DNA of 46,046 bases from Candidatus Omnitrophota bacterium (lineage in GTDB: Bacteria > Omnitrophota > Omnitrophia > Omnitrophales > Omnitrophaceae). Shown here piece by piece: positions 8,180 to 45,603 of the stretch; the stretch's first letter is position 1; every line of letters begins with the position of its first letter. A program made the translations under genes and the position numbers. The DNA lies in the NCBI GenBank assembly GCA_016209715.1, contig JACQVP010000087.1:1-46046 (forward strand), read 5' to 3'. Under the pieces are notes generated by a model. The model was not told where the DNA came from. It saw only the letters and a program-made list of their open reading frames with translations, and did not search any database.

Positions 8180-8243
8180 ATAGCTTACGTTTACAACAGG
8201 TTTTATCCCCCAAACCCATAAGACCGAGATGAAGGAGAAACAA

Positions 8244-12200: not shown

Positions 12201-12615
12201 GATGGAATACCTCGGCCGGACGGATTTCGTCCATAAGCCGGTAGACGCAGGAGAACATCATCCTGCCCCGGTGGCGCCGGCCCTGCCCGCACCCGAGGCG
12301 CCGTCCGCCAAAGCCCTGCCTCCGAAAGAGACCGGAACGGGGGAAGGCGCTTACTCGGCGAAAGCGGAACTCAATGAATCCGCGGAACTCGGCAACGGTA
12401 AATACGGCCTGCCGGATGTGACCGAGTCCGTTTCCTCGAGCGTGCTCAAATTCTCGGAGAATCCTCAGGAGTCGGTCCTGATGAGCGTTCTGGACGAGCA
12501 ATTGTCACAAATGATGGGCGACGCGCCCTTCTGCAACATCTGCGGGCACATCACGGTCAGGAGCGGTTCGTGCTACAAGTGCCTGAATTGCGGAAATTCG
12601 ATGGGGTGTTCCTGA
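9256..12615 (+). CDS. nrdJ: Class II (adenosylcobalamin-dependent) ribonucleotide reductase
   Basis: Long-form NrdJ with the catalytic loop [21 protein letters not shown], the GLGYANLG and [21 protein letters not shown] blocks, and a C-terminal Cys-rich zinc-ribbon tail CNICGH...[11 protein letters not shown] 9307 has GGAG 6 nt upstream and may be the true start. Confidence 0.95.
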
Positions 12616-13705
12616 TCGCCGCCTGATCCAAATATCCCTTGAGGTGGACGGAATCGTCCAGCGCCACCTCAAGGGAGTCTTCCCACAGCTCGCGGCTTTC
12701 CATGCACAGATAAACCGGCACTTCCGCCGAATATTCCCGGATCAATCCGCACACGTATTCGTACATTTTCCGGCGGATGGGTTTGAAATACCTTTTCTTT
12801 CCGTCCAAGCCGGGGATGAATTCCCCCGCAAAAATTCCCGTGCGGCCGAAGCGATTTTCGGCGGTTTTTTTCAGGGAAGGCATGAAACGGAGCGCCCCCA
12901 GACTGATCCACGCGATCCGTGACGGATTGAGGTTCCTGAAAATAAGGTCCACCGTCTTCCGGTATCCGTTTTTCCATCCTTCCGCGTGGATCAGCGGATC
13001 CAGATGAAATCCCGTCCGGTAACCCCAGCGCTCGCATTTTCGCGCCGCGGCGACGCGCTCCTCCAGGGTTGCGGTCTTGAATTCCTCCCGCCGCTGGATT
13101 TCTTCGGTGTTCATGGACCAGGACACGATCACGCGGCCCCGCGGATCGGCCTTTCCCAAATTTTGGACATTGTCCGACTTGGTCTTGAATTCCAGCACGG
13201 CGTTTTCGCGTCCGGCAAAAAAGCGCACGAGCGGCACGCTCCATTCCGTCAAATGGTCAAGCGACAGGGAATCGATGAGTTCGCCGGTGCCGACCCGGAA
13301 AAATTGACCGGGGGCGGCGTCCAGCCGGCCGGCCAGTTCCGCGAGGATGTCATCGAAGTTGGTGAAGACGGTGATCAGCGGGTTCGTGAGGTAACTCTGC
13401 AGAATGCAATAGGTGCATTCCAGGTCGCATCCCGTGCCGAGATGCAGGATTTGAAAATGGCAGGACAGATACTCGGGGATCAGCGGGAAGGGTTTGAGAA
13501 AATCCCCCTTTTTCCGGCGGAGCAGCAGCTTTTTCTTGCCGGACGTGAACGGGTCGCTTTCGCTGCGCGTTTCGGAAATCACGCCGGCCGCGTCTTCGAC
13601 GATTTCACGGGGAATGCCGGGAAGGCGCGAGAGGATTTCGCCGGTGAGACGGTCTTCCAGCGCCGACTTTTCGATATAGACCCGCTCAGGCCGGAAATAT
13701 CGCAT
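12557..13705 (-). CDS. Spore-photoproduct-lyase-family radical SAM protein
   Basis: Radical SAM CxxxCxxC (GCDLECTYC). The N-terminal [14 protein letters not shown] block and the EGWKNGYRK block are colinear with B. subtilis SplB as I recall it. 382 aa. The 3' end overlaps the nrdJ 3' end by 59 nt. Confidence 0.7.
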
Positions 13706-14578: not shown

Positions 14579-14607
14579 TAATTGCATTGTCGGATTTCAA
14601 TGTCCCC

Positions 14608-15213
14608 ATGAGAAAAAACTATACGACATTTGAAATCGGAAGGATTTGCCAGGTCTACCCGACCACGGTCATCAACTGGATCAAGGAGGGGAAACTGGCC
14701 AGTTTTACCACGCCCGGCGGACACCGGCGGGTGCGGCCGGAGGACCTTGCCGATTTCCTGCGCCGTTACAACTTCCCAATGCCGGAGGAATTGATGCGAA
14801 ACGGCCGGCCTAAAATCTTGATCGTCGACGACGACCCCGAAATGGTCCGGCTCGTTTCGATGACGCTCGAAAGCGAGGCCCGCGCGCACGGGTGGGACGT
14901 CCAATCCGTTTCCACGGGTTTCGGCGCGGGGGTGAAAATTTTCGAATGGCAGCCGGACCTCATCCTGCTCGACTTTCTCATGCCGGACCTGGACGGCGAC
15001 GAAGTCTGCCGGGCCCTCCGCGAGAACCAAAAGTCACGCCTCACGCCGATCATCGCGCTCACGTGCCTGACCTCGGAAAAAGACCGGGCCAGGATCTTCG
15101 AGTCCGGAGCGACGGATTACATCGCCAAACCTTTCGAGCGGGCAAAGCTGATCGAAAAGGTCAAAAAACACCTGACTCCCAACCGGAGAGGATTGGTCCG
15201 CGAATCCTTGTAG
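14608..15213 (+). CDS. Response regulator with N-terminal excisionase/MerR-type HTH and C-terminal receiver
   Basis: HTH: YTTFEIGRICQVYPTTVINWIKEGKLASFTTPGGHRRV. Receiver motifs: ILIVDDD, LILLDFLMPDLDG, IIALT and IAKPF. ATG 14608 is preferred over the TTG 14587 of the ORF track. Confidence 0.8.
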   Translation: MRKNYTTFEIGRICQVYPTTVINWIKEGKLASFTTPGGHRRVRPEDLADFLRRYNFPMPEELMRNGRPKILIVDDDPEMVRLVSMTLESEARAHGWDVQSVSTGFGAGVKIFEWQPDLILLDFLMPDLDGDEVCRALRENQKSRLTPIIALTCLTSEKDRARIFESGATDYIAKPFERAKLIEKVKKHLTPNRRGLVRESL

Positions 15214-17162: not shown

Positions 17163-17183
17163 ATGCGGCCTTTCCGCTGACAA
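17155..17183 (-). promoter_or_regulatory. lpxB promoter TTGTCA-N17-TATACT
   Basis: Minus-strand reading: TTGTCA at 17183-17178 and TATACT at 17160-17155. The hexamer lies 11 nt from ATG 17143, which predicts a ~5-nt leader. The -35 overlaps the first base (17183) of the divergent gene's ATG. Confidence 0.5.
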
Positions 17184-18613
17184 TGAAACTCCAAGAACCG
17201 CTGATCCCCAAACCCGTTCCCGAATTTCCCGGCATGTGGAAGGCCATGGGGCCGGCCGTGATTTGGCTCGCCCTGGCTCAAGGGAGCGGGGAGCTGATCT
17301 GGTGGCCCTACATGATCGCCAAATACGGCCTCGCGTTCTTGTTCCTGCTGGTTCCCGCCTGCCTGCTCCAGTATCCGCTGAATTATCAGATCGGTGCCTA
17401 CACGCTGCTCACAGGTGAAAGCATCTTCCAGGGATTCATCCGGCTCAACCGTTTTTTTTCACTTTATCTGTGGGTCCTGATGACCCTTTCGTTTCTATGG
17501 TTCGGCGCTTTTGCCGGGGCGGGGGGGACGTCGCTCGCGGCCCTGACGCATTTTCCGCACGGGTGGAGCGGAAAGGGGCAGACCCTTTTCTGGGCTTATC
17601 TTTCCATGGGGATTTTTTTCGCCGGGCTCATGTTGAGCAAGGTGGTGTACCGGTTCATCGAAAGGACCATGTGGTTCGTCGCGGCCGTGACCCTGGCCGG
17701 ATTGATGGTCGCCTGCTCACATGCCGACGTCGTCAAGGCGGCGGGTGATTTTTTCCGGGGGCTCCTGGTCCCGCAATGGCCCCTCCCGCGGCCCTGGGAA
17801 TGGAAGGACGCGACCAAATTGCTCACGGCCGTGACCTTTGCGGGATTGGGGGGCTTCTGGACGCTTTTTTATTCTTACTGGCTGCGGGAAAAAGGCGCCG
17901 GCATGGCCGCTTACATGGGCCACGTGACCGGGCCGATCACCGGAAAAAAGGAGCTGATCCCTCAGTCCGGTTTCACGTTTGCCGGGACCGAAGAGGACTG
18001 GCGGCGCTTGAAGAAATGGAAGAAATATCTGGCGGCGGATTCGGCGGCCGGGATCGCCGGAAACATCGCCACCACGCTGATGACCTGCCTGCTGGCCTAC
18101 GCGCTCCTGTACCCTCAGGGAATCCTGCCGGACCGCTATGAAATCGCCGTGGTCCAGGCCCGTTTTTTCGAAGTCAGCTGGGGCGTCGCGGGGCGCCTCA
18201 TATTTCTATTCGTCGCCGCCTGTTTCCTCTCCGACACGTGGCTCACGACCCTCGATGCCGTGAGCCGCATCCACACGGACTTCTTCCAGAATTTCTTTCC
18301 CGGCTTCAAGAGGTTCAGTTTTTTGCAGGGGTACTATTTCTTCGTTTTTCTGCTGACCGCCGTCACGGGGATCACCATTTTGTTCAACGAGCCCGGGCCG
18401 CTCATCCTTTTGAGCGCCGTGATCGGGTTCGTGGGGACGGTGAGCTTTTCGGTCGGGCTGATCTTTCTGAATTACCGGCGGCTTCCGGAATTGGTTCCGG
18501 CGGGCGCCGTGCCGGGCCGGTTTTTCTTCTGGGGTTTGGTGCTGGCGACGGCGTGTTACGCGGCGCTCGCGGTGCTGTACTTCGGGACGCTCATGTTTCA
18601 GCCGCGGATTTGA
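17183..18613 (+). CDS. Polytopic membrane transporter, Nramp-related (tentative)
   Basis: About 11-12 hydrophobic helices. The N-terminal GPAVIWLALAQGSGELIWWPYMIAKYG resembles Nramp-related transporter families, but the canonical DPGN motif is absent. Confidence 0.5.
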   Translation: MKLQEPLIPKPVPEFPGMWKAMGPAVIWLALAQGSGELIWWPYMIAKYGLAFLFLLVPACLLQYPLNYQIGAYTLLTGESIFQGFIRLNRFFSLYLWVLMTLSFLWFGAFAGAGGTSLAALTHFPHGWSGKGQTLFWAYLSMGIFFAGLMLSKVVYRFIERTMWFVAAVTLAGLMVACSHADVVKAAGDFFRGLLVPQWPLPRPWEWKDATKLLTAVTFAGLGGFWTLFYSYWLREKGAGMAAYMGHVTGPITGKKELIPQSGFTFAGTEEDWRRLKKWKKYLAADSAAGIAGNIATTLMTCLLAYALLYPQGILPDRYEIAVVQARFFEVSWGVAGRLIFLFVAACFLSDTWLTTLDAVSRIHTDFFQNFFPGFKRFSFLQGYYFFVFLLTAVTGITILFNEPGPLILLSAVIGFVGTVSFSVGLIFLNYRRLPELVPAGAVPGRFFFWGLVLATACYAALAVLYFGTLMFQPRI

Positions 18614-21598: not shown

Positions 21599-22567
21599 AT
21601 GGTCAGTTTAAATGTGAAGCAGCTGCTTGAAGCGGGCGTCCACTTTGGGCACCAGACGCGCCACTGGCACCCCAAGATGAAGCGCTATATCTTTGGGCAA
21701 AGAAACGGGATTTATATCATCGACCTTGAAAAAACGATGGCTGGATTGGAGAAGGCCTGCCGCTTTTTGAAGGAGACCGCCGAGAAGGGCGGCACCGTGT
21801 TGTTCGTCGGCACCAAGAAGCAGGCCCAGGAACCCATCCAGAAGGCGGCTGCCAAATGCAACATGCCGTACGTGACCCAGCGCTGGCTCGGCGGGATGCT
21901 CACGAATTTCGAGACCATCCGCAGGAGCATCGCCCGTTTGGAGGCCATCGAAAAGATGGAAGCGGAAGGCACGTACCAGTTTCTGACCAAAAAGGAAGTT
22001 TCCTGCCTGAAGAAGGAGAGAGACAAGCTCAACAAGGTCCTTTTGGGTGTCCGAACCATGGCGCGCCTTCCCCAGGCGGTTTTCATCGTGGATCCGGGCA
22101 AAGAATCTATTTCCCTCCAGGAGGCGTCTAAGCTCGGAATCACGGTCGTGGCGTTGATCGATACCAACACGGATCCCGATTTGGTGGATTATGTGGTCCC
22201 GGGCAATGATGATGCTATTCGGTCCATCACCCTCATCTGTGATCTCGTGGCTCAATCCGTGGCGGAAGGGCATGAAAGATTTCTGACCCTGAAGGCCCAG
22301 GAGGAGGCACGGGTGGCTGCCGAGGCCGAGGCGCGCGAGAGAGAAAGGCTGGCCCGCGAAGAGGAATTGGCGCGGCAGGCGAAGGAAAAGGCCGATGCGG
22401 AAGCGGCGGCGAAGGAAGCCGGACTGAAGGCCGCGGAAGAAACGGAAGAAGATCCGGCCGCACCGGCCGCGGACGACGATACCCTGGTGGAAAAGTTTGA
22501 TGAGTTCGGCAAGGCGCGTACCCCTTCCAAATCCAAAGTCCGCAAGGGTTCCAAGGTCAAAGAATAA
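21599..22567 (+). CDS. rpsB: 30S ribosomal protein S2 with long acidic/Ala-rich C-terminal tail
   Basis: VKQLLEAGVHFGHQTRHWHPKM and the rest of the S2 core, then a ~95-aa E/A/K-rich extension. Confidence 0.95.
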   Translation: MVSLNVKQLLEAGVHFGHQTRHWHPKMKRYIFGQRNGIYIIDLEKTMAGLEKACRFLKETAEKGGTVLFVGTKKQAQEPIQKAAAKCNMPYVTQRWLGGMLTNFETIRRSIARLEAIEKMEAEGTYQFLTKKEVSCLKKERDKLNKVLLGVRTMARLPQAVFIVDPGKESISLQEASKLGITVVALIDTNTDPDLVDYVVPGNDDAIRSITLICDLVAQSVAEGHERFLTLKAQEEARVAAEAEARERERLAREEELARQAKEKADAEAAAKEAGLKAAEETEEDPAAPAADDDTLVEKFDEFGKARTPSKSKVRKGSKVKE

Positions 22568-27342: not shown

Positions 27343-29945
27343 CGAATCCTTATCGCCTCGATCGATCCGTTGTTCCCGTGACTTACGCCATCGAGCTGGA
27401 GCCTGATCTCGAACGCTTCGTCTTTCGGGGAAGCGAGGAGATCGTGATTCGCGCGCTGAAACCGTTTTCCCGGATCACGCTCCACGCGCTCGACCTGAAG
27501 ATCGTGAAGGCCTCGCTGGACCCGGCCGGCTCCCGAGATTCGCTTCCCGCCCGCCGCATCGATTATGATCCGGAAATGGAGACGGTCACGCTGGACTTCG
27601 GCCGCGTTATCCCGCGCCAGAAGGCCGCGCGGCTCCGGCTCGAATTCACGGGGGAGCTGAATGACCAGATGCACGGATTTTACCGGACGCGTTATGAGGC
27701 GGGAGGGCGCGAGCGCTGGGGCGCGGCGACGCAGTTCGAGGCCACCGATGCCCGCCGTGCTTTTCCGTGCTGGGACGAACCGGATTTCAAGGCCCAGTTT
27801 GACATCACCCTCACCGTGCCCTCCGGCCTGACGGCCCTTTCCAACATGCCGGTCCGGTCCCAACGCAGGGCCGGAAACGGGAAGAAGCGGATTTCGTACG
27901 AGACCACGCCCGTGATGTCCACGTATTTGGTCGCGTTCGTGGTGGCGGACCTCGTTTATTCGGAGGCCAAAGACCGGGACGGCGTCCTGATCCGAGTGTA
28001 CACCGCGCCGGGCAAGAAGGAACAAGGCCGATTCGGTCTGGACGTGGCTCTCCACACGCTCCCGTTTTTCGCGGACTGGTTCGGCATCCCGTACGCCTTG
28101 CCCAAACTAGACATGGTGGCGTTGCCGGATTTTGCTTCCGGCGCCATGGAAAATTGGGGGCTCGTGACTTATCGGGAAACCGCTTTGCTGGTCGACCCCA
28201 AACAATCCTCGGCCTCCGCCCGGCAGCGCGTCGCGGAAGTGATTGACCATGAATTGGCGCACCAGTGGTTCGGGAATCTGGTGACGATGAAATGGTGGAC
28301 CGATCTTTGGCTGAACGAGGGTTTCGCGTCCTTCATGGGACCCAAGGCCGTCGACCGGCAATTCCCGGAATGGAAGGTCTGGGACCAGTATTTCGCCAAC
28401 GAATGCCTGGGCGCTCTCCGCGCGGACAGTTTGCGGAACACCCATCCGATCGAAATTCCCGTCAAAAATCCGCACGAAATCCGCGAGATCTTCGACGCCA
28501 TCACTTACAGCAGGGGGTCCGTCGTCTACCGGATGCTCGAGCATTATCTCGGGGAAGCGGTCTTTCGCCAGGGGCTGCGGCGTTATCTGAAGCGCCATGC
28601 GTTCGGCAACGCCGGCACCGGGGATCTCTGGCGGGCGCTGGAAGAAGTCTCCGGCAAGCCGGTCAGTTCCCTGATGGCCGCCTACACGCGTCAACCCGGT
28701 TACCCGCTAGTGTCGGTCGAATCCCGACGGCGTGGCGAGAACCTGACGCTTTCACTGGAACAATCACGTTTTCTTTTCGACGGGGCCGAAGACCGCGACA
28801 ATTTGCGCTGGAAGGTGCCCGTGGCCATGACCGGGGCAGGCCTGGGCAAACAGCACCTGACCTTGCTCGGCGGCCGCCGGACTTCGATCCGTCTGCCGGT
28901 GCCTCCGGGCGGATGGGTCAAGCTGAACGCGGGGCAAACCGGTTTTTACCGGGTCCGGTATCCCGAGGAGCTTTTGCGGCCTCTCGTGGCGAGACTCGAG
29001 CAGCGCGCCTTTTCGGTGAGCGAATGTCTGGGGATACTCAGTGACGTCTTTGCCCTGACGCGTTCCGGTCACGCGACCACCGCACAGGCGCTGGACTTGA
29101 TCTGGAGCGCGCGCAAGGAAACCGATTTCAATGTCTGGGCGGCCATGATCGGGATGTTGCGCGACATAGAAAACGTCCTGACGGCCGACCGCGCGCTTCC
29201 CGAACTTCAGGTACTGGGAAGAAAACTCCTTTTGCCGGTCGCTCGCCGGCTGGGCTGGGACCCAAGGCCGGAAGATCGTTATTCCGACATTCTCCTGCGT
29301 TCGATGGCCCTGAGCAATCTCGGGCATTTCGGAGAGTTGGAAACCGTCCAGACCGCGCGCCGCAAGTTTCTGGACCACACTCGAAACGGGCGCCTGAATC
29401 CCAATTTGCGCCAGGCCGTGTACGCGATCGCCGCCGAATTCGGCACCGCTGCGGAATACGAGGGGCTTTTGGAAATTTATGCGTCCGCGGGCATGCAGGA
29501 GGAGAAAGTGCGGGTCTTGCGCGCTTTGACCCGCGTCCGCGACTCCAAACAGATCCCGCGCATCCTCAAATTCGCCCTGTCGCCGCGCGTGCGGCCCCAG
29601 GACTCTTACGTCATTTTGGGGGGATTCGGCGGGAATCCGGCGGCGCGGGAGGCCGCTTGGGATTTCGTCCGGGCCAATTGGCGCGTCTTGGAAAAGCGTT
29701 ACCGGGGCGGGAGCGTGAATCTGTTCGGGCACATCGTCGAGGGCGCCGTGACGGGTTTTTCGACGCTCGAGAAGTGGCGTTCGGTCCGCGCCTTTTTGAA
29801 CATGCATCCCGTGCAGGGAACCGAACGGACGGTCCGTCAATCCTTGGAAGTGATCAAGTCCAACGCCGCTTGGGCCGGCCGGGGAACCCGGGAATTGCGG
29901 GCCTGGTTCAGCGCAAACGCGCCAACTCTTCGTTCAGAAAGCTGA
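27321..29945 (+). CDS. pepN: M1-family aminopeptidase N
   Basis: GAMENWG exopeptidase motif and the zinc site HELAHQWFGNLVTMKWWTDLWLNEGFA. ERAP1-like C-terminal domain. An alternative ATG at 27333 is possible. Confidence 0.9.
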   Translation: MGEPMPVTNPYRLDRSVVPVTYAIELEPDLERFVFRGSEEIVIRALKPFSRITLHALDLKIVKASLDPAGSRDSLPARRIDYDPEMETVTLDFGRVIPRQKAARLRLEFTGELNDQMHGFYRTRYEAGGRERWGAATQFEATDARRAFPCWDEPDFKAQFDITLTVPSGLTALSNMPVRSQRRAGNGKKRISYETTPVMSTYLVAFVVADLVYSEAKDRDGVLIRVYTAPGKKEQGRFGLDVALHTLPFFADWFGIPYALPKLDMVALPDFASGAMENWGLVTYRETALLVDPKQSSASARQRVAEVIDHELAHQWFGNLVTMKWWTDLWLNEGFASFMGPKAVDRQFPEWKVWDQYFANECLGALRADSLRNTHPIEIPVKNPHEIREIFDAITYSRGSVVYRMLEHYLGEAVFRQGLRRYLKRHAFGNAGTGDLWRALEEVSGKPVSSLMAAYTRQPGYPLVSVESRRRGENLTLSLEQSRFLFDGAEDRDNLRWKVPVAMTGAGLGKQHLTLLGGRRTSIRLPVPPGGWVKLNAGQTGFYRVRYPEELLRPLVARLEQRAFSVSECLGILSDVFALTRSGHATTAQALDLIWSARKETDFNVWAAMIGMLRDIENVLTADRALPELQVLGRKLLLPVARRLGWDPRPEDRYSDILLRSMALSNLGHFGELETVQTARRKFLDHTRNGRLNPNLRQAVYAIAAEFGTAAEYEGLLEIYASAGMQEEKVRVLRALTRVRDSKQIPRILKFALSPRVRPQDSYVILGGFGGNPAAREAAWDFVRANWRVLEKRYRGGSVNLFGHIVEGAVTGFSTLEKWRSVRAFLNMHPVQGTERTVRQSLEVIKSNAAWAGRGTRELRAWFSANAPTLRSES

Positions 29946-30891
29946 TTCCGGTGACCGTCTCCGCCGACGGGAGGGCCCCGTGGCGGATGAGGTAGCTCTG
30001 GATCCGGGATTGCCTCCCCGTTTGCAGCGAGTCTTTGTGCTTGATTCCAGCCAGAGAAAGTGATTTTCCCAAGGTTTCAATATGGGCCAGTCCGCGGACG
30101 ATGAAGTGGACCGAGTCCGGATGGCTGGCTTGAATTTCCGCGATCGAATCGGCCAGGGCTTGGTCGCGGATCCAGAGGGACCGTTTCAAACGGCGATAGG
30201 CGAGCGCCAGGCTGGCCAGAGCCAGGTCCTTGCGCCCCTTTTCCCGCCAATATTCGGTCATGCGACCTAAGGCATCCCGCCGCAAATCTTCCACGTACGC
30301 CTCGAAGGACGGCTCCTCGCGCAGGATACGGATCTTCCAGGGATTTCCCGCGAGCGCGGTCAAGTCCGGGTGAATCTTCCGCATGAAATCATCGCTCAAG
30401 AAAGGTTTTTTTTCGGGAAAAAGGTCTTCTTTGCGCCGGGCCCTCTCAAACGGATCTCTCAAGGCTATCTCCGTCTCGTGCGGCAGGGTGTTTTCGAGCA
30501 ATTCCCGCTGCCAGTTGACGGCGGAGCCTGCGGCAGAAGGGATCTTTCGCTGAAGGCCGCGGACCGTGTCTGGCATGCCGCCGGGGTAGGCGTGTTCGAG
30601 CCAAATGAAAACCGGGACATCCGCCGGAACGTCCCGAAGGGAACGGCGGATCAGGACGGAACACCATTCGGCATCCCTTGCCGAACCGTGGGCGGACAAC
30701 ACGACCTGAACGGCGGGCAGAGGCGCGGCGGCATAGGGGACGGAGACCGGGGCCGGACGGAGAACCAGGTTCCAAAATTGGCGCTGCGGGCCGGAGACGG
30801 GGGCATTTTCAAGGGCGGTTTCGGCCGGTTGGGCCGGCACGGGAAAGGAGAGAATAAAGGCCAGGAGGAAGGACACGGTTTTGCTTTTCAT
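29908..30891 (-). CDS. Hypothetical secreted protein
   Basis: Signal peptide (VSFLLAFILSFPVPAQPAE). A mixed alpha/beta-looking 327-aa protein. The faint VVLSAHGS...FIVRGLAHIE pattern is reminiscent of ChaN/Tiki-type folds, but this is not supported further. Confidence 0.55.
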   Translation of the reverse strand: MKSKTVSFLLAFILSFPVPAQPAETALENAPVSGPQRQFWNLVLRPAPVSVPYAAAPLPAVQVVLSAHGSARDAEWCSVLIRRSLRDVPADVPVFIWLEHAYPGGMPDTVRGLQRKIPSAAGSAVNWQRELLENTLPHETEIALRDPFERARRKEDLFPEKKPFLSDDFMRKIHPDLTALAGNPWKIRILREEPSFEAYVEDLRRDALGRMTEYWREKGRKDLALASLALAYRRLKRSLWIRDQALADSIAEIQASHPDSVHFIVRGLAHIETLGKSLSLAGIKHKDSLQTGRQSRIQSYLIRHGALPSAETVTGISFLNEELARLR

Positions 30892-35435: not shown

Positions 35436-36152
35436 TTATATCGCGGGCGGATTTTCTTTTGGAATGTTGAATCGTTCTTTGTATTTGTCGATCAAACTGT
35501 TGATCGTGACGAGGTCGCGCACCCGGACCTGGTTGATCTCGGGGGTTTGATCTTCTCGGACGGCCTCGGCGAAGAGCTTGCGATAGGTCATGAGCGCGTC
35601 CAAGAAACGGAATCCGCTTCGCTGGTCTTTCGAACTCATTTCGAAGATGTATTCGGTGATGAAGCTCATGTTCTGGCTTTTTTCGGGATAATTCTTGAGG
35701 AATTCAATTTCGGTGGCGAAAACCTCCTCCAACAATTGATAAGCGTTCAACAGCGTGTTCCGGACGAAGAGTTGGGATTCCGAACGGGTCTGTATTCCTT
35801 GGAGATATTGGATCTTGGAGCGGATCATTTCCTGCTGCGCGAAAATCCCGGTTGGATTGATCAAGGATTCCGGAGGCACTCCTGTCGCCATAATGTCCCG
35901 GAGTTCCGCTTGCCTGCGTTCGTAAATTTCATCGAAAGTCAGGAACTCGGAAATGCTCAAAAACTGAAAGAAAAGGTCCGGCTTTGGTTTTTCGGGCGCC
36001 GGGGCGGACGCTTCCGGCGCTTTCGCGACGGGCGTTTTCATTCGGCATTTTTTGAGCGCGGCTCCGTGGCGGTATTCGTGGATCGCGTCCGCAGCGAAGA
36101 AGCCCAGAAGAAAAAAAGCGACCAGGGAGAGGAGGGCCGTCGTTTTTCTCAT
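35436..36152 (-). CDS. Hypothetical secreted protein
   Basis: ATG 36152 gives MRKTTALLSLVAFFLLGFFAADA (signal peptide), then a P/A/K linker and a helical domain. The 469-aa ORF-track version extends across the DUF420 gene on the other strand and is rejected. Confidence 0.6.
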   Translation of the reverse strand: MRKTTALLSLVAFFLLGFFAADAIHEYRHGAALKKCRMKTPVAKAPEASAPAPEKPKPDLFFQFLSISEFLTFDEIYERRQAELRDIMATGVPPESLINPTGIFAQQEMIRSKIQYLQGIQTRSESQLFVRNTLLNAYQLLEEVFATEIEFLKNYPEKSQNMSFITEYIFEMSSKDQRSGFRFLDALMTYRKLFAEAVREDQTPEINQVRVRDLVTINSLIDKYKERFNIPKENPPAI

Positions 36153-36182
36153 GGCTAAATTGTAGCATGGAGCGGGCGGTGA

Positions 36183-36191
36183 TGCTAAGAT
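36183..36191 (+). promoter_or_regulatory. Extended -10 element TGcTAAGAT upstream of the DUF420 gene
   Basis: TG-c-TAAGAT at 36183-36191, 9 nt before ATG 36201, which predicts a ~3-nt leader. No SD. Confidence 0.3.
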
Positions 36192-36200
36192 AACCGCCTT

Positions 36201-36620
36201 ATGGACTTTTCGCAATTGCCGGCCCTCAATGCGTCTTTGAACATGGCCAGCGCTTTTTTGGTCCTGCTGGGTTTTGTTTTCATCAAACAGCGGGCCATCA
36301 CGGCCCACACCATTGCCATGCTGGGCGCCTGCCTGACTTCGACCCTGTTCCTCGTCTCCTATCTCACGTACCACTATTTTCACGGCTCCATCCGGTTCCA
36401 GGGGCAGGGATGGCTCCGCGCGCTTTACTTCGTCGTTTTGATCTCGCACACGGTTTTGGCTGCGGTCATTCTGCCGATGGTCTTGGCCACTCTCTGGCAG
36501 GCCCTCCGGGGCCGATTCGTCAAACACGCCGCCTGGGGGCGGGTGACGCTTCCGGTTTGGCTGTATGTCTCGATCACCGGGGTGGTCGTCTATTGGATGC
36601 TTTATCGTCTCCATGTCTGA
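36201..36620 (+). CDS. DUF420-family integral membrane protein
   Basis: 139 aa with four helices. The LPALNASLNMASAFLVLLGFVFIK and ISHTVLAAVILPMVLATL blocks are typical of DUF420. Confidence 0.75.
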   Translation: MDFSQLPALNASLNMASAFLVLLGFVFIKQRAITAHTIAMLGACLTSTLFLVSYLTYHYFHGSIRFQGQGWLRALYFVVLISHTVLAAVILPMVLATLWQALRGRFVKHAAWGRVTLPVWLYVSITGVVVYWMLYRLHV

Positions 36621-37362
36621 ACGGAAAGATCCCTTCGGCTTCTGGTTCTGGCTGGGATGGATTGTCTGGTTCGCCGTCTCTCTGGTCCTCGCGGCGGTGG
36701 TTTGGACGCGTCTGCTCGACAGAGTATTCGGCCGGATTGAAGGAATAGAACTCACGGCGACTTGGAGCTTGGCGGTGTTCGGCACCTGGTTTTTGTTCCT
36801 GGTTCCTTTCATCCGGAAAAAAGAGCAGATATGGAAGCGCCTCAACGACGATCAGGAGGCGGCCGTGGACGCCTGGCTCATCGGACTGAGCGCCTTCATC
36901 GCGTCCGGGATCGGGGCGACTTTTTTCTGGAGTTTAAAGCTGAGAGGGACCCCCTGGCTCAAGGCCGTGACAGTCACTTGGCTGGCTCTCATGATTCCGG
37001 GCCTCCTCTGGATGTACCGGGCGGCGGGGCGCATTTTCAAATCCGCGGAGTCGCGCCAAGGGCCGGAAACGCGCCGGTACCGCAAGCAGTTCGTTCCCCG
37101 GAACCAGCGCTTGATTCCTGAGCCGGTTTCGGAGAAAATCAAGCGCATGTCCCCCACGCTCCCGAAGGGACACGTGGTAACGGTCCTCCTCAAGAGTGGG
37201 GTCCGGATCCCCGGCGTGTTTATTTATGACTGCGCCGAAGTGCTCGGCGTGTATGACCGGGACCTCGATTTTAATCCGGCGGAGATTGAGGACGCGGAAT
37301 TGACGGAACCGGGGCGATTGCCCGCCTTCGAAGAATCCAAATGGCTGAGGCTGGACGGATGA
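36613..37362 (+). CDS. Hypothetical membrane protein (4 TM plus C-terminal soluble domain)
   Basis: ATG 36613 overlaps the DUF420 stop by 8 nt. Hydrophobic segments FWFWLGWIVWFAVSLVLAAVVW, WSLAVFGTWFLFLVPF, LIGLSAFIASGIGATFFW and VTVTWLALMIPGLLWM. No family recognised. Confidence 0.55.
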   Translation: MSERKDPFGFWFWLGWIVWFAVSLVLAAVVWTRLLDRVFGRIEGIELTATWSLAVFGTWFLFLVPFIRKKEQIWKRLNDDQEAAVDAWLIGLSAFIASGIGATFFWSLKLRGTPWLKAVTVTWLALMIPGLLWMYRAAGRIFKSAESRQGPETRRYRKQFVPRNQRLIPEPVSEKIKRMSPTLPKGHVVTVLLKSGVRIPGVFIYDCAEVLGVYDRDLDFNPAEIEDAELTEPGRLPAFEESKWLRLDG

Positions 37363-40156: not shown

Positions 40157-40219
40157 GCGCCTATCGTTCTCCAATTCCCGGACCGCTGTCCTCCTGAATG
40201 TCCCCCCTTAATCCCCTTT

Positions 40220-40301
40220 TTGCTTATAATTGATAAGAATTGATAAGTATAATTTGCTTCTGATTTGATTTTTTATAAAACCAGGGCTATCTTTTTATAA
40301 A
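40220..40301 (+). promoter_or_regulatory. AT-rich repeat-laden control region of the Hpt/ATPase/kinase operon
   Basis: Two TATAAT boxes 23 bp apart, the 10-bp tandem repeat, TGATT-TGATT (40261-40270), and two TTTATAAA palindromes 22 bp apart (40272-40279, 40294-40301). No convincing -35 for any hexamer. Confidence 0.4.
40228..40247. repeat. Perfect tandem 10-bp direct repeat AATTGATAAG x2
   Basis: Copies at 40228-40237 and 40238-40247, flanked on each side by TATAAT (40225-40230, 40248-40253) and TTGCTT (40220-40225, 40254-40259). Confidence 0.8.
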
Positions 40302-40310
40302 GCAAAGGCT

Positions 40311-40616
40311 ATGGACCCTCAACGGATCGTCGTTCGGGCGGACCCCGAAATCAAAGACCTGATTCCTCTCTTTATAAAGCACCGCCACGAGGACATCGGG
40401 CGAATCCGCGAATGCCTTCGGCAAAGTGATTTTGAAACCATCGAAATGCTGGGACACAGCATGAAGGGCGTGGGGAAAGGATACGGTTTCGCCGAGATCA
40501 CGGTCCTCGGCGGGCAAATCGAGAGCGCCGCGAAAGGCCGGTTCGCGGAGGCGGTCGAAAATTTGGTCCGGGAGTTGGACACCTACCTCAACTGCGTGGA
40601 TGTCATTTATGAATAA
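40311..40616 (+). CDS. Histidine phosphotransfer (Hpt) domain protein
   Basis: 101 aa, four-helix-bundle-like, with the Hpt signature LGHSMKGVGKGYG. Confidence 0.8.
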   Translation: MDPQRIVVRADPEIKDLIPLFIKHRHEDIGRIRECLRQSDFETIEMLGHSMKGVGKGYGFAEITVLGGQIESAAKGRFAEAVENLVRELDTYLNCVDVIYE

Positions 40617-42750
40617 CCACCATTCTTCCATGATGTCCGGGCCGCTGGCGCGCTTTCCGGGGTTCGTCGAATTCATTTGCTCCAAAACGGGCCAGAACCA
40701 ATTGGTGCTGGATCAATTGAAGCAGATGGGAAGCACGGACTTGTTCCGCTTCCCCGAATTGACCGGGATCACGGAAGAAATCCTGGCGGAATTCATCGCC
40801 GAATACTGCGCCCTCCCGCTCTTGACCTACATCAACCCCAGCCAGATCCACCTGGAGCCGTTTTCGAAAAATTTTTGCCGCGCCCATCACCTGGTCCCTC
40901 TCAAGGACGAAAAAGGGCGGCGCGTCCTGGCCCTCGCCAATCCATTCAACCTCGAGCTTTTGGATTCGCTGGCGGCCCGGTTCCAGGGACAGCCGTTCGA
41001 GATCCGCGTGGCCGAGCGGCAGACGATCGCCTTTCTTTTGGTGGAGGAGAACGTCGACGATTCCGAAGAGGTCGGGCAGGGGGCGAGCGGGTTCATCGAT
41101 CTCTTGAAGTCGGAAAGAGAGCTGGAGAAATTCCCGATCATTCACATGGCCAGCAACCTGCTTCACGCCGCCGCGCTCCGCAAGGCGAGCGACATCCACA
41201 TTGAGCCGAAAGACGCTCACATAGCGGTCCGCTTCCGCATCGACGGCGACATGAACGAAGTCTACGGAATCAAAAAGGAAACCGGCGTCAAGTTGATTTC
41301 CCGGTTCAAGGTGCTCGGCGGCCTGGACATCTCGGAGAAGCGCAAACCGCAGGACGGCGCGGTCGAAGTCACCATCGATCACCGCATTTTCAAGCTGCGG
41401 CTGGCCACCAGTTCCACGCCCAAAGGCGAATGTCTCATCATCCGGCTGCTGGACACGAGCGTTAAACCGAGGAGCCTGGATGTCCTCGGGATGTCCTCCG
41501 CGCAGGTGAAGTCGCTGATCGGTTTGGCGAACCGACAGGCGGGATTGATCCTGATCGTGGGGTCGACCGGCTCGGGCAAGACGACCACCATTTACAGCCT
41601 GCTGGCCCAAATGAACTGCGCCACCAAGAGCTTGATCTCGGTCGAAGACCCGGTGGAATACCGCATCCCGTTTGCCAACCAGCAGCAGGTGAACGAGAAG
41701 GCGGGACTCACCTTCGAGTCGCTTTTGAAATCGACCCTGCGCCAGGACCCGGACATCCTTTTTTTGGGAGAGGTGCGGGACCCATTTTCCGCCAAATCGT
41801 CCTTTGATTTTGCCAGCACCGGACACGTGACCGTGACGTCGCTCCACACGGCGAACGCGACCACCGCGATCTTCCGCCTCGAGCGCCTCGGCATCACGCG
41901 TGAAAACATCGCGGACACGATCCTCGGGATCGTCGCCCAGAAACTCCTGAAAAAATTGTGCGTGCACTGCAAGCAAACAGGGCCCCCGACCGCGGCCGAA
42001 AAAGAGTGGCTCGTCCGCTTCCGGGGCGAGATGCCGTCGACCGTGGCGCGCCCCAAGGCCGGCGGCTGCGTGCAATGCAACCACAGCGGATATTCCGGCC
42101 GCGAAGGGGTCTACGAAATCATCGAATTTGACGCGGAAATAACGGCGCGCATCCGCGCGGGGCAGTCGATTTCCGAGATCCGCGGGTTCATCGAAGGCCG
42201 CGGCGATTACCTGATGAGCCATTCCGCCGTCGACAAGGTGAGACAGCTCATATTCTCGCCGAAGGACATTTATGAGAAGGTCCTGGTGGAGGAGCCAGAA
42301 GCCGGAGAGGCGGGCGCCGAGCGGGAAGAGGACATCGTCCAGGAAGAGACGGCCGCCAAGCCGGCCCGCCGGGAGGTCGCCGAACACCCCTCGATCCTGG
42401 TGGTGGAAGACGATCGGGACATGAGGCTTTTGCTCCGGCGCCTCTTGGAAAGCCGCGGGTATGAAATCATCATCGCGGAAGACGGGGTCGAGGCCTTGCT
42501 CACGCTGGGGAAGAAGAAATTCGATCTCATCCTCTCCGATGTCAACATGCCGAACCTGAACGGCTTCAAACTGCTGGAGATGCTCAGCCAGAAAGGCATC
42601 CGCATCCCGGTCCTCTTTTTGACGGGGCAATCCCGGGAGGAGGACGAGATCACGGGATTCGAACTGGGAGCGTTCGATTACATTAAAAAACCGGTCCAAA
42701 AGGAGATCCTCCTGCACCGCATCCGGAAGGCGCTGCAGACGCCGTCATGA
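40600..42750 (+). CDS. GspE/PilB-family secretion ATPase fused to a C-terminal response-regulator receiver domain
   Basis: Domains in order:
- T2SSE_N-like N domain (FCRAHHLVPLKDEKGRRVLALANPFNLELLDSL)
- Walker A GSTGSGKTTT
- Asp box SVEDPVEY
- Walker B DPDILFLGEVRD
- His box TGHVTVTSLHT
- tetracysteine CVHC...CVQC
- acidic linker
- receiver domain (ILVVEDD, LILSDVNMPNLNG, FLTG, IKKP). Confidence 0.9.
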   Translation: MSFMNNHHSSMMSGPLARFPGFVEFICSKTGQNQLVLDQLKQMGSTDLFRFPELTGITEEILAEFIAEYCALPLLTYINPSQIHLEPFSKNFCRAHHLVPLKDEKGRRVLALANPFNLELLDSLAARFQGQPFEIRVAERQTIAFLLVEENVDDSEEVGQGASGFIDLLKSERELEKFPIIHMASNLLHAAALRKASDIHIEPKDAHIAVRFRIDGDMNEVYGIKKETGVKLISRFKVLGGLDISEKRKPQDGAVEVTIDHRIFKLRLATSSTPKGECLIIRLLDTSVKPRSLDVLGMSSAQVKSLIGLANRQAGLILIVGSTGSGKTTTIYSLLAQMNCATKSLISVEDPVEYRIPFANQQQVNEKAGLTFESLLKSTLRQDPDILFLGEVRDPFSAKSSFDFASTGHVTVTSLHTANATTAIFRLERLGITRENIADTILGIVAQKLLKKLCVHCKQTGPPTAAEKEWLVRFRGEMPSTVARPKAGGCVQCNHSGYSGREGVYEIIEFDAEITARIRAGQSISEIRGFIEGRGDYLMSHSAVDKVRQLIFSPKDIYEKVLVEEPEAGEAGAEREEDIVQEETAAKPARREVAEHPSILVVEDDRDMRLLLRRLLESRGYEIIIAEDGVEALLTLGKKKFDLILSDVNMPNLNGFKLLEMLSQKGIRIPVLFLTGQSREEDEITGFELGAFDYIKKPVQKEILLHRIRKALQTPS

Positions 42751-45434
42751 AACTGTCCCTGCTGGAAAAAATACTCGTCGCATTCGGCCTGGCCGTCATG
42801 GGCCTGACGGCGGCGGGATGGATTTCGTACTGGAGCGCGGCCATTTTTCTGGTCGTCGCGCTGGCTTTCGTCGTCGTCGAGCGGGATTTCACCGGCCGGC
42901 GACAGGCGGAGACGGCCCTCTTGAAGAGCCAGCGGGAAGTCCAGCTGCTGCTGGATTCCACCGTGGAAGCGATCTACGGCCTGGACGCCAAAGGGCGCTG
43001 CAACTTTTGCAATCCAGCGTGCCTCGAGCTCCTGGGATACCAGGATCAGCGCGATTTGCTGGGACGCAACATGCATGAGCTCATCCACCACACCCGCGCG
43101 GACGGAAGTTTTTTTCCGGAAGCGGACTGCTTCGTGTATCAGGCCCGCCAGCTTGCCGCCGGAACCCACCGGGACGACGAAGTTTACTGGCGCGCGGACG
43201 GGACCAGTTTTCCGGTGGAGTATTGGTCCTATCCAATCCGCGACGGCAAGGAAGTGCTCGGGACGGTCGTCACCTTTCTCGACATCAGTGAAAGAAAGCG
43301 GACGGAGCAGCGTTTGAACCTTCAGCACCGGATCACCTGCATCCTGGCGGACTGCGATTCGCTGGAAAGCGCCGCCGAAAAAATTTTGTATGAAATTTGC
43401 CGGCATCTCGGGTGGGGCGCCGGCGTGCTTTGGACGGTGAGGGAGGAGACCCTGCAGGCGGGGCCCTGCCACGCGGCGGGCGTGCCGAAGGACGCGCTGG
43501 ACGAGGCGTTTCAAGGGGTTCCGGTCCTTCGCGGCAAGGGGCTCCTGGGGCTCGCCTGGGAGGAACGCAAGCCGGTGTGGTCGCGGGAGATCAAATCGGA
43601 TCCGGCGGTCGAGGGAGCGGCCAATTTGTCCCGCCTCACCTTTGAGGCCGCGCTGGCTTTTCCGGTGATTCTGGGCGACCGGGTGCTGGGAGTGCTGGAA
43701 TTTTTTACCCGTCAGTTCTCGGAGCCCGATCCGGAGCTCCTGACTTTATTCGCGTCGGTCGGCAGCCAGTTGGGCCAGTACATGGAGCGCAGGAGGGCCG
43801 CCGAAGATCTGGAACAGGCCCGGGACGAGGCGGTTCAGGCCTCTCAAAGCAAATCGGAATTTCTGGCCACCATGAGCCACGAGATCCGCACGCCGATGAA
43901 CGCGATCCTCGGGATGACCGAACTCTTGGCGGAGACGCCGCTCACGTCCGAGCAAAAGGAATACCTGCAAATCCTGAAGCGGGGCGGCGAGTCTTTGCTC
44001 AAATTGATCAATGACGTGCTCGATCTCTCGAAGGTCGAGTCCGGGCAGATGGAGGCCGAGCAAAAGGAATTCAACCTCCGCGAGTTCATGGACGCGACGC
44101 TCGAATTCATGGCGTTCCGGGCGCACCAGAAAGGGCTGGAACTGACCTGCCGGATCCTGCCGGGAGTGCCCGAAACCGTCATCGGAGATTCGCACCGCCT
44201 GCGTCAAATCCTGGTCAACCTGGTCGGAAACGCCATCAAATTCACCCACAAGGGCGAGATCTATCTGGAAATCATTTTGGCCGAGAGGCCTTCGGCCGCC
44301 GGGAACGCGGTGCTCCGGTTCTCCGTGCGCGACACGGGGATCGGGATCCCGGCCGAAAAAATACACACGATTTTCAGCCCCTTTTCCCAGGCGGATTCTT
44401 CCACCACGCGACGTTACGGCGGCACCGGTCTGGGACTGAGCATCTCCAAGAAACTGATCGAATTCCTGGGCGGGAATATCCGCGTGGAAAGCAAGATCCT
44501 CGAAGGCACTACGTTTTATTTCGATTTGCCTTTCGGCTTCCAGAGCGGCAAGCCCCAGGTCGCCCCCGCGGCTCCGATCCCTCAGGAATTTTGGGGCACG
44601 CGGACCTTGATCGTGGACGACAACGCGACCTCGCGGTTTGTGCTCAAGGAGATCCTCGAGACCTGGGGATTTTCGGTCCGCGAAGCCGAGGCCGCCCGCG
44701 CCTGCTTCACGGAAATCCGCTCGGCCGCGGAAAGAGGCGCGCCGTATCAATTGCTGTTCATCGATTGCCGCATGTCGGGCATGGGGGGATTCGAGGTGGC
44801 CCGGTGGGTGCGCAATGAGATCAGCGCCGACACGGCGATCCTCATGCTGCTGACCGCGGACGCGAGGGCGAGCGACGCCGAAGATGCGAAAAATCTGGGC
44901 GTCTCGGCCTCGATCGTCAAGCCCGTGAAAAAGCAATCCCTCCGCGACGCCGTCCTCAGCGTGATGGAGCAGAGGATCGAGCATCTCCGGCGCCAGCCCG
45001 CGGACCAGGGGATCGCGGAAAAGATCGTCCGGGACGGCTTTGATCTCCTGCTGGTGGACGATTCGGACGACAACCGGTTGCTGATCAAGGCCTACTTGAA
45101 ACGGACCCCGTACCGGATCGACATCGCCGAGAACGGTCAAATCGCGCTGCAAAAATTCATCAGCGGTCATTACGATTTGATCCTCATGGACATGCACATG
45201 CCGTACATGGACGGATACACCGCGACGCGCCAAATCCGGGATTGGGAAGTCAAACATTCCGCTCGGACGCGGACCCCGATCATCGCCCTCACCGCCGATG
45301 CCTTCAAAGCCGACATTGCCAAGTGCCTGGACGCGGGTTGCGATTCCCATTTGGCCAAGCCGATCAAGAAAGAGGACCTTCTCAAGACTGTGAGCGGTTA
45401 TTGCCCGCCCGCATCCGGACTTTTTGGCACTTAA
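42747..45434 (+). CDS. Hybrid sensor histidine kinase (2 TM, PAS, GAF, HisKA, HATPase_c, REC, REC)
   Basis: Domains in order:
- two N-terminal TM helices with no periplasmic loop
- a PAS domain
- a GAF domain
- H-box FLATMSHEIRTPMNAI
- N/G boxes VNLVGNAIKFT, RDTGIGI and GGTGLGLSI
- receiver 1 (LIVDDN, LLFIDCRMSGMGG, LLTAD, IVKPV)
- receiver 2 (LLVDDSDDN, LILMDMHMPYMDG, IALTAD, LAKPI)
The start shares ATGA with the ATPase stop. Confidence 0.9.
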   Translation: MKLSLLEKILVAFGLAVMGLTAAGWISYWSAAIFLVVALAFVVVERDFTGRRQAETALLKSQREVQLLLDSTVEAIYGLDAKGRCNFCNPACLELLGYQDQRDLLGRNMHELIHHTRADGSFFPEADCFVYQARQLAAGTHRDDEVYWRADGTSFPVEYWSYPIRDGKEVLGTVVTFLDISERKRTEQRLNLQHRITCILADCDSLESAAEKILYEICRHLGWGAGVLWTVREETLQAGPCHAAGVPKDALDEAFQGVPVLRGKGLLGLAWEERKPVWSREIKSDPAVEGAANLSRLTFEAALAFPVILGDRVLGVLEFFTRQFSEPDPELLTLFASVGSQLGQYMERRRAAEDLEQARDEAVQASQSKSEFLATMSHEIRTPMNAILGMTELLAETPLTSEQKEYLQILKRGGESLLKLINDVLDLSKVESGQMEAEQKEFNLREFMDATLEFMAFRAHQKGLELTCRILPGVPETVIGDSHRLRQILVNLVGNAIKFTHKGEIYLEIILAERPSAAGNAVLRFSVRDTGIGIPAEKIHTIFSPFSQADSSTTRRYGGTGLGLSISKKLIEFLGGNIRVESKILEGTTFYFDLPFGFQSGKPQVAPAAPIPQEFWGTRTLIVDDNATSRFVLKEILETWGFSVREAEAARACFTEIRSAAERGAPYQLLFIDCRMSGMGGFEVARWVRNEISADTAILMLLTADARASDAEDAKNLGVSASIVKPVKKQSLRDAVLSVMEQRIEHLRRQPADQGIAEKIVRDGFDLLLVDDSDDNRLLIKAYLKRTPYRIDIAENGQIALQKFISGHYDLILMDMHMPYMDGYTATRQIRDWEVKHSARTRTPIIALTADAFKADIAKCLDAGCDSHLAKPIKKEDLLKTVSGYCPPASGLFGT

Positions 45435-45493
45435 AAAGACACTGCGCCAAATTGACTCACCCCCTGTTATTCTCGCAAGCGCCTTAGAAATTC

Positions 45494-45528
45494 AATAAAT
45501 CCTTCATTTGATTTATTTTGCATAAATC
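45494..45528. promoter_or_regulatory. Interlocked inverted repeats upstream of hsp20 (candidate operator or alternative hairpins)
   Basis: AATAAATC (45494-45501), GATTTATT (45510-45517) and ATAAATC (45522-45528). The central copy is complementary to both flanking copies. It overlaps a weak TTGCAT-N18-CACAAT promoter candidate (45518-45547). Confidence 0.35.
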
Positions 45529-45603
45529 TAACCTCGTTCTTCACAATTGGCATCCGGAATGAATTATGGAAGCGTTCGTCAAACCATACATAAGGAGGAT
45601 GCC

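Follow-up and report, generated by a model that had tools for sequence, protein, structure and literature searches.

A putative phosphorelay ending on a receiver-fused GspE/PilB-class ATPase in Candidatus Omnitrophota

The DNA analyzed here is a 46,046-nt stretch of a Candidatus Omnitrophota bacterium (GenBank assembly GCA_016209715.1, contig JACQVP010000087.1, positions 1–46,046), hereafter called the window. Near its end (40311–45434, + strand), three tightly packed genes encode a stand-alone histidine phosphotransfer (Hpt) protein, an ATPase of the GspE/PilB class (type IV filament extension-type) with a C-terminal receiver (REC), and a hybrid histidine kinase. We consider it probable that the three genes form one operon and that their products constitute a His-Asp-His-Asp phosphorelay ending on the receiver fused to the ATPase. 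The unit is a reduced member of a widespread and conserved module that is apparently unstudied. Motors of pili and type II secretion are known to be controlled by binding of cyclic di-GMP (c-di-GMP), by accessory proteins (PilZ/FimX), and by separate CheY-like proteins. If the proposed relay is correct, a motor with its own receiver and a dedicated Hpt protein would provide a direct two-component route from a signal to filament or secretion activity, and a new enzymatic output class for response regulators. The module is probably important for attachment, uptake, or partner interaction because it is conserved across more than 10 mostly uncultured, largely anaerobic phyla, among them Omnitrophota, Syntrophales/Desulfobacterota, Elusimicrobiota, and WOR-3.

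Gene organization and domain structures

An earlier reading made from the letters of the window (the sequence-only reading) had described three genes with overlapping start and stop codons, and the open reading frame (ORF) list confirms them (Table 1). The TAA stop codon of the Hpt gene (40614–40616) overlaps the ATG of the ATPase gene at 40609 by 8 nt, and the ATGA at 42747–42750 is common to the ATPase stop and the kinase start (4-nt overlap). The ATPase start had been left at 40600 or 40609, with a product of 716 aa. The gene itself stands, and its start is most likely 40609 rather than the alternative 40600, because the 8-nt overlap and the "MN" N-terminus match the relatives. The two AT-rich spacers said to bound the unit were also found, and their measured GC contents are far below that of the unit. 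No convincing sigma-70 promoter match was detected in the upstream spacer and no terminator-like hairpin in the downstream spacer (promoter and intrinsic terminator scans, each with nothing above the shuffled background), and neither spacer contained a riboswitch or other known RNA (Rfam, no matches at E ≤ 1). The next gene after the unit, from 45604, encodes an Hsp20 protein (Pfam HSP20 match).

Table 1. Coordinates of the unit (window positions) and of partner genes at related loci (L numbers denote loci of relatives).
Feature	Position	Strand	Evidence
AT-rich upstream spacer, 154 bp, likely promoter region	40157–40310	+	38% GC vs 60% for the unit
Stand-alone Hpt protein, 101 aa	40311–40616	+	ORF list; Pfam Hpt; family profile
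GspE/PilB-class ATPase with C-terminal receiver, 713 aa	40609–42750	+	Pfam MshEN, T2SSE, Response_reg; conserved 8-nt Hpt overlap
ATPase N-terminal region: helical bundle (aa 10–67) and T2SSE_N1-like alpha/beta domain (aa 87–143)	40636–41037	+	AlphaFold2 pLDDT ~82; Pfam MshEN
T2SSE ATPase core (N2 and C-terminal domains)	41125–42249	+	Pfam T2SSE; Walker A 41560–41583; tetracysteine 41959–42078
Acidic, predicted disordered linker (aa 562–591)	42292–42381	+	pLDDT 27–34
C-terminal receiver of the ATPase	42394–42726	+	Response_reg 101 bits; AlphaFold2 (beta-alpha)5 fold
Hybrid histidine kinase, 895 aa	42747–45434	+	Pfam; hydropathy; residue positions
Kinase transmembrane hairpin	aa 8–45	+	Hydropathy
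Kinase PAS	42936–43286	+	Pfam
Kinase GAF	43356–43784	+	Pfam
Kinase HisKA	43848–44045	+	Pfam; His378 at 43878–43880
Kinase HATPase_c	44184–44534	+	Pfam
Kinase REC1	44604–44954	+	Pfam; Asp673 at 44763–44765
Kinase REC2	45048–45392	+	Pfam; Asp815 at 45189–45191
AT-rich downstream spacer, 169 bp	45435–45603	+	40% GC vs 60% for the unit
Zn-ribbon protein genes	L003 12534–13085; L006 12555–13082; L008 12564–13109; L010 12540–13088		Conserved sequence
Prepilin-type (N_methyl) genes	L003 13082–13927; L004 8784–9680; L006 13079–13510; L010 13085–13678; L014 8666–9523		Beside long-form ATPases

The central gene product carries the hallmarks of GspE that the sequence-only reading had listed. The T2SSE domain (PF00437) was matched at 326.6 bits (E = 2e-97, profile positions 4–361 of 370, cut-off 24.9), MshEN/T2SSE_N at 47.6 bits, and Response_reg at 101.1 bits (profile 1–111). 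In the 713-aa numbering used here, the Walker A motif GSTGSGKT is located at 318, the Walker B motif DPDILFLGEVRD at 380, the His box at 404, and the tetracysteine motif (CxxC...CxxC) at 451–490, and the catalytic motifs are invariant in an alignment of 20 family members. The closest solved chains to the core are PilF (6f8l), GspE (1p9r), and PilB (5tsg) with ~240–260 bits, whereas PilT reached only ~90 bits. Because the scores are far below the NCBIfam equivalog cut-offs for GspE (TIGR02533, 347 vs 630) and PilB (TIGR02538, 345 vs 676), the protein is regarded as a member of the superfamily that is an orthologue of neither.

The AlphaFold2 model of the ATPase (mean pLDDT 73.9) consists of, in order, the helical bundle, the T2SSE_N1-like domain, two ATPase domains, a disordered tether, and a receiver folded as (beta-alpha)5 with pLDDT 81–88. 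The description of an acidic linker followed by a complete receiver thus holds for the window protein, as the full Response_reg profile was matched. Across the family, the linker varies in sequence, length, and charge, and its acidic form is specific to the window's clade. The receiver contains the acidic pair Glu600/Asp601, Asp644 as the predicted acceptor (codon 42538–42540), Thr672, and Lys694. Asp601, Asp644, Thr672, Lys694, and Pro695 are invariant in the 20 aligned members, and the last ~120 residues are accordingly a receiver with a conserved acceptor. All three receivers of the unit, including the two of the kinase, align with Asp57, Thr87, and Lys109 of CheY, and the acidic pair is present in each. 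A search of solved structures revealed no chain combining a GspE/PilB-class ATPase with a receiver.

The N-terminal region was examined with regard to c-di-GMP. The ATPases MshE, PilB, and GspE that are controlled by c-di-GMP (PMC5013675) belong to the same class and likewise have a regulatory module joined to their catalytic core, and the window ATPase keeps the T2SSE_N1-like half and an N-terminal helical bundle. However, the Pfam MshEN match covers only profile positions 17–77, corresponding to residues 84–144 in the 716-aa numbering, that is, the T2SSE_N1-like half. The tandem 24-residue c-di-GMP motif, RLGxx(L/V/I)(L/V/I)xxG(L/V/I)(L/V/I)xxxxLxxxLxxQ, was not matched in the ATPase by strict or relaxed patterns, and control by c-di-GMP via MshEN was therefore rejected for this protein. 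Whereas MshEN systems respond to a nucleotide ligand, control of the window ATPase would be exerted by an Hpt-fed C-terminal receiver.

Because the single-sequence Pfam score of gene 1 is marginal (22.7 bits vs the cut-off of 24.6), its assignment as an Hpt protein rests on the family profile. By this profile, built from 29 orthologues, gene 1 is an Hpt protein: solved HPt proteins, namely fungal 8rqj/8pbw, 7c1i, ArcB (1a0b), YPD1, CheA P1, and LuxU, were matched at E = 2e-5 to 2e-4. His49 (codon 40455–40457) in the GHSMKG motif is the predicted phospho-His, and His49, Met51, Lys52, and Gly53 together with the following GxxYGF are invariant in the 29 orthologues, in agreement with the 101-aa GHSMKG protein of the sequence-only reading. 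The window protein shows 43–48% identity to small genes adjoining related ATPases, and several of these Hpt-like genes have recorded Pfam Hpt matches.

The kinase had been read as a cytoplasm-sensing PAS-GAF histidine kinase with two complete receivers. The Pfam analysis bears out the PAS, GAF, HisKA (84.7 bits), HATPase_c (103.2 bits), and two Response_reg domains, and hydropathy adds a membrane anchor. Since the protein has a two-helix membrane hairpin and no periplasmic domain, it is membrane-anchored but cytoplasm-sensing. The kinases of relatives nearly all have the order variable sensor, HisKA, HATPase_c, REC, REC, and the sensors across the family include PAS arrays and dCache-HAMP. Variation of the sensors alongside a constant kinase-REC-REC core, Hpt protein, and ATPase is the pattern to be expected if the output is fixed and the inputs can be exchanged. 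In one WOR-3 genome (GCA_011052815.1, L008/L009, 6984–7526), an H-NOX (HNOB) gene lies immediately upstream of the module kinase, which suggests that the ATPase relay of this lineage receives a gas (NO/O2) signal as input.

The unit is under purifying selection. In the comparison with the relative of 88% identity, the ratio of nonsynonymous to synonymous substitutions (dN/dS) was 0.22 for Hpt, 0.05 for the whole ATPase, 0.030 for the ATPase core, and 0.018 for the receiver, values that are rough because dS is near saturation. The receiver is the most constrained segment of the ATPase, with nonsynonymous and synonymous differences of pN = 0.02 and pS = 0.61, a contrast that is clear despite the saturation.

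Distribution and conservation of the module

The fusion of T2SSE with a C-terminal receiver turned out to be common in the databases rather than rare. All of the best 120 relatives (49–88% identity) have T2SSE and a C-terminal Response_reg, so the architecture is not specific to the window. Relatives carry automatic names such as "Flp pilus assembly complex ATPase component TadA", "response regulator", and "PilB". The NCBI name TadA, given to many family members, looks like a misnomer, because the nearest counterparts of the core are the GspE/PilB/PilF extension ATPases, whose tetracysteine motif it shares. In the alignment of 20 members, most relatives (~850 aa, the long form) have a second, complete receiver at the N-terminus, which is missing from the window ATPase and its closest relatives (713–726 aa, the short clade). 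We considered whether the missing N-terminal receiver of the short clade had moved onto the kinase and rejected this, since the kinases of the long form also have two C-terminal receivers. The closest genome match to the tail of the ATPase was found in a Candidatus Omnitrophus fodinae single-cell genome.

When one genome per species was scanned, 88 loci were confirmed and 80 were kept, all from metagenome-assembled or single-cell genomes. They belong to Syntrophales/Desulfobacterota, Omnitrophota, Elusimicrobiota, WOR-3, Gemmatimonadota, Planctomycetota, Acidobacteriota/Aminicenantes, Actinobacteria/Coriobacteriia, Chloroflexota, Victivallales, and Auribacterota, and the family spans more than 10 bacterial phyla. 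A profile of the ATPase-REC junction and receiver gave 11,556 matches at E ≤ 1e-30 among 1.84 billion representatives, a number inflated by multi-receiver proteins; ~40 of the best 150 clusters span the junction, and the family size taken from this profile is a lower bound only.

Neighborhoods were read ~10 kb to either side of each ATPase gene by searching all ORFs with profiles of the module's own proteins, and the denominators are the loci with enough flanking sequence. The family Hpt gene lies directly upstream of the ATPase gene on the same strand in 52 of 67 loci and anywhere in the locus in 59 of 67, and the hybrid kinase core is present in 40 of 62. The adjacency of Hpt and kinase genes is thus kept in relatives. 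The 8-nt overlap of the Hpt and ATPase genes recurs in at least 16 loci under the longest-ORF rule. Within the short clade, the order Hpt-ATPase-kinase is found in the window, in the locus of 88% identity (L091), and in L001, L011, and L092, with flanking genes that partly differ. Directly upstream of the unit in L092 are genes for a 176-aa stand-alone MshEN-domain protein (165–695) and a guanylate/adenylate cyclase-domain protein (692–2224).

The divergence of Hpt was correlated with that of the C-terminal receiver (r = 0.79) more strongly than with that of the N-terminal receiver (r = 0.51). The partial correlations were 0.40 vs 0.20. Since the pairs lack independence, the difference is no more than a hint.

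Proposed phosphorelay and alternative explanations

Here, we propose a relay along the path given in the sequence-only reading. The gene order, the domains, the catalytic residues, the linkage conserved across phyla, and the purifying selection are observed; we infer the order of phosphotransfer from kinase to Hpt to the ATPase receiver, its effect on the ATPase, and the machine that the ATPase would drive. The membrane-anchored kinase would perceive a cytoplasmic cue via PAS-GAF and autophosphorylate on His378. The phosphoryl group would pass to one of the two receivers of the kinase, then to His49 of Hpt, and would end on Asp644 of the ATPase receiver. This receiver is held on a disordered tether of ~30 residues, and its phosphorylation state may alter the behavior of the ATPase, most likely by affecting how the hexameric ring assembles, how active it is, or how it engages with a membrane machine. 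Of the two possible directions, we prefer activation, brought about by relief of inhibition. The relay would then act after translation to control a filament or secretion motor, and its output would not be transcription. The C-terminal receiver is favored as the target of Hpt because it is the sole ATPase receiver in the short clade, which keeps Hpt and kinase, because its catalytic positions are invariant, and, as a hint, because the divergence of Hpt tracks it better than the N-terminal receiver.

The closest mechanistic analogue of a tethered receiver gating a hexamer is provided by NtrC, DctD, and NtrC1, in which a receiver is fused to a ring-forming AAA+ ATPase and phosphorylation switches ring assembly or activity. 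By analogy with these proteins, we favor a mechanism in which the tethered receiver of the window ATPase controls whether the ring assembles or is active. They differ in the fold family of the ATPase, in the N-terminal position of the receiver, and in their transcriptional output, and the window ATPase, which has no Pfam match to Sigma54_activat, is not a member of their family.

As to the relay itself, ShkA-ShpA-TacA of Caulobacter (PMC6969517), LuxQ-LuxU-LuxO, and Sln1-Ypd1-Ssk1 likewise consist of a hybrid kinase, an Hpt protein of ~100 aa with an HxxKG motif, and a separate response regulator, and the kinase-REC1-REC2 layout of ShkA is that of the module kinases (PMC6969517). REC1 of ShkA is a pseudo-receiver, whereas both receivers of the window kinase look catalytically complete. 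These known relays end on transcription factors or regulators of mitogen-activated protein kinases; in the window, the acceptor is fused to a GspE/PilB-class ATPase, and the relay is deduced from the genes.

Post-translational tuning of the activity or localization of PilB-class motors by a phosphorylatable receiver, as proposed for the window, is found with DrdR of Xanthomonas (PMC13507683), which was reported to raise the ATPase activity of PilB/PilT, with the PATAN-REC proteins PixG/PixH of Synechocystis (10.1101/2021.06.11.447907, PMC11181946), and with PilG/PilH of Pseudomonas (PMC10519157). All of these are separate, trans-acting proteins that are mostly fed by CheA-type kinases, in contrast to the window receiver, which is covalently tethered and predicted to be fed by Hpt. 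A receiver fused to the same ATPase class was listed as REC-MshEN-T2SSE (Geobacter metallireducens Gmet_3473) in Supplementary Table 4 of Wang et al. 2016 (PMC5013675). That table gives the N-terminal REC fusion only, with no C-terminal form, function, or Hpt/kinase link. The ~850-aa relatives have such an N-terminal receiver together with the C-terminal one; the window ATPase has the C-terminal receiver instead. A full-text literature search revealed no characterized REC-fused GspE/PilB ATPase, although the search was thin on subscription journals, so that the absence is not proof, and a 2024 review of PilB regulation (PMC11656802) makes no mention of a receiver-fused PilB.

Several points weigh against the proposed relay to a motor. 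Genes for a pilin, a platform protein (GspF/PilC), a secretin, and a prepilin peptidase were not found in the window or within 10 kb of the ATPase in the short-clade relatives, and no reading frame of the window contains a prepilin-like N-terminus. Neighborhood clustering revealed no platform protein conserved near any family member, and the clustering for platform, secretin, and peptidase gave no further conserved partner besides pilin-like genes. As no pilus or secretion gene lies near the window ATPase, the label of a motor for a type II secretion system or type IV pilus (T2SS/T4P) is drawn from family membership. The "T2SS/T4P-class motor" of the sequence-only reading thus keeps its T2SSE core and motifs, but lacks a machine gene in the window and is an orthologue of neither GspE nor PilB. 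To these points are added the Hpt score, which falls slightly short of the Pfam cut-off, the roughness of the dN/dS values, and the phosphotransfer steps, which are predicted rather than observed. The relay could also branch, because the kinase has two complete receivers and other regulators exist, such as the helix-turn-helix (HTH)-REC protein encoded at 14587–15213. Activation and inhibition by phosphorylation cannot be told apart from sequence.

In the likeliest of the alternatives, the ATPase would be mainly a signaling or scaffold protein whose nucleotide or oligomeric state is set by the relay and passed on to other targets. The absence of machine genes from the window and the vicinity of short-clade relatives, the lack of a conserved platform protein near any family member, and the scores far below the GspE and PilB equivalog cut-offs are consistent with such a role, and PilB of Myxococcus xanthus was reported to signal in exopolysaccharide regulation (PMC5544727). 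We regard this explanation as unlikely, since all the catalytic and Zn-binding motifs that mark extension ATPases are kept without change, purifying selection acts strongly on the core, and a prepilin-type gene adjoins one third of the relatives. To our knowledge, moreover, all members of this class that have been studied operate together with a type IV filament machine.

The two complete receivers of the kinase and the orphan HTH-REC regulator in the window also bear on a second alternative, that the receiver of the ATPase serves as a side branch or phosphate sink and the real output of kinase and Hpt is another response regulator, for example a transcription factor. Stand-alone Hpt proteins can indeed serve several acceptors. 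This explanation appears slightly less likely again, because in 52 of 67 genomes from across the phyla the Hpt gene is linked to that of the ATPase, often by the 8-nt overlap, no DNA-binding regulator is conserved in the neighborhood, and the receiver is the most constrained part of the ATPase. A sink would also leave its fusion to an intact ATPase unexplained.

Pseudo-receivers are common, and the C-terminal domain might be one that serves dimerization or localization independently of phosphorylation, with Hpt and kinase acting elsewhere. The receiver of FimX, for instance, has no acceptor Asp yet affects pilus localization (PMC11656802). The window receiver, by contrast, matches the full Pfam profile at 101 bits and has the acidic pair, acceptor Asp, Thr, and Lys-Pro, none of which varies among 20 relatives, which makes this role improbable. 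That three unrelated signaling genes lie together incidentally is very improbable: two-component genes are numerous and chance clusters of them are frequent, and no clear operon boundaries emerged from the scans for promoters and terminators, but the neighborhood statistics already contradict this explanation, with 8-nt and 4-nt start/stop overlaps, a gene order recurring in five short-clade contexts with partly differing flanks, Hpt-ATPase adjacency across more than 10 phyla, and Hpt fused to another component of the module in three loci.

Candidate filament partners and the remaining window

That other component is a Zn-ribbon membrane protein, which together with a prepilin-type protein is encoded, as an extra partner of the long form, in about one third of the loci (19–22 of 62). 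The Zn-ribbon protein (~175 aa) is bitopic, with a cytoplasmic CxxC...CxxC zinc ribbon, one transmembrane helix, and a periplasmic domain that is conserved and contains the motif GTYxTD...CIxNLW...VCPVS..PY...CPNPExH. It matched no Pfam family and gave only sub-threshold zinc-ribbon matches; the 138 clusters that represent it in the database bear either no name or a generic one, mostly "hypothetical protein". The AlphaFold2 model is moderately confident as a whole and confident in the periplasmic domain (pLDDT ~88), and a Foldseek search gave no PDB fold match better than E = 1. The gene normally lies after the ATPase gene. In three loci (L004 7969–8787, L057, and L062), however, Hpt is fused to the Zn-ribbon/transmembrane/periplasmic protein in an ORF of 272–288 aa located ~1.2 kb upstream of the ATPase gene, and a second, stand-alone Hpt is retained. 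The fusion is, judged from these ORFs, a Rosetta-stone link from the relay to a membrane partner. The prepilin-type (N_methyl) proteins have a common C...CPxGGxY...CSxH core; some carry a 3keto-disac_hyd/DUF1080 lectin-like domain, and others have Pro-rich or Lys/Glu-rich tails.

These partners allow a more tentative reading, which we put forward as a possibility only: the family may be an undescribed phosphorelay-gated type IV filament-like device, of which the Omnitrophota short form would be a reduced version. The full device would comprise, equally tentatively, a dual-receiver kinase, Hpt, a REC-ATPase-REC motor, the Zn-ribbon protein, and a prepilin-like protein, often with a lectin-like head. 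Such a device could put out an adhesive or lectin filament seconds after a signal arrives and without a transcription step. The window has no N-terminal receiver, Zn-ribbon protein, or prepilin-like gene, and the short-form, single-receiver ATPase would then plug into a general pilus machine or have become a pure signaling ATPase.

Outside the unit, the window is ordinary chromosome, with genes for SPFH proteins, PabB- and ADCL-like enzymes, PurH, a Mur-ligase-type protein, MnmE, a class II ribonucleotide reductase, LpxB, an MsbA-like ABC exporter, rpsB-tsf-pyrH-frr, an M1 peptidase, PFK, a PTS EIIA protein, an M48 peptidase, GH77, TerC, and the Hsp20 protein. Among homologues of RpsB, nearly all that bear a name belong to Candidatus Omnitrophota. 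The orphan response regulator at 14587–15213 (+) has an unusual domain order, in that an HTH_17 (excisionase/MerR-like) domain at the N-terminus precedes a receiver at the C-terminus, and has no adjacent kinase. A radical-SAM gene of the spore photoproduct lyase (SPL) family is located at 12557–13705 (−), and we know of no spore formation in Omnitrophota. Four ORFs of 223–476 aa, at 8229–8900 (+), 17183–18613 (+), 29908–30891 (−), and 35436–36845 (−), have no Pfam match at E ≤ 1e-4. The GC content by codon position is coding-like in the first, third, and fourth of these; the second was not among the ORFs selected by that screen, and it overlaps the start region of lpxB by ~100 bp. Ribosomal protein S2 (21599–22567, +) has 322 aa, of which the Pfam domain spans only residues 9–224, so that ~100 aa form a C-terminal extension; only the closest (Omnitrophota-like) homologues align with the whole protein.

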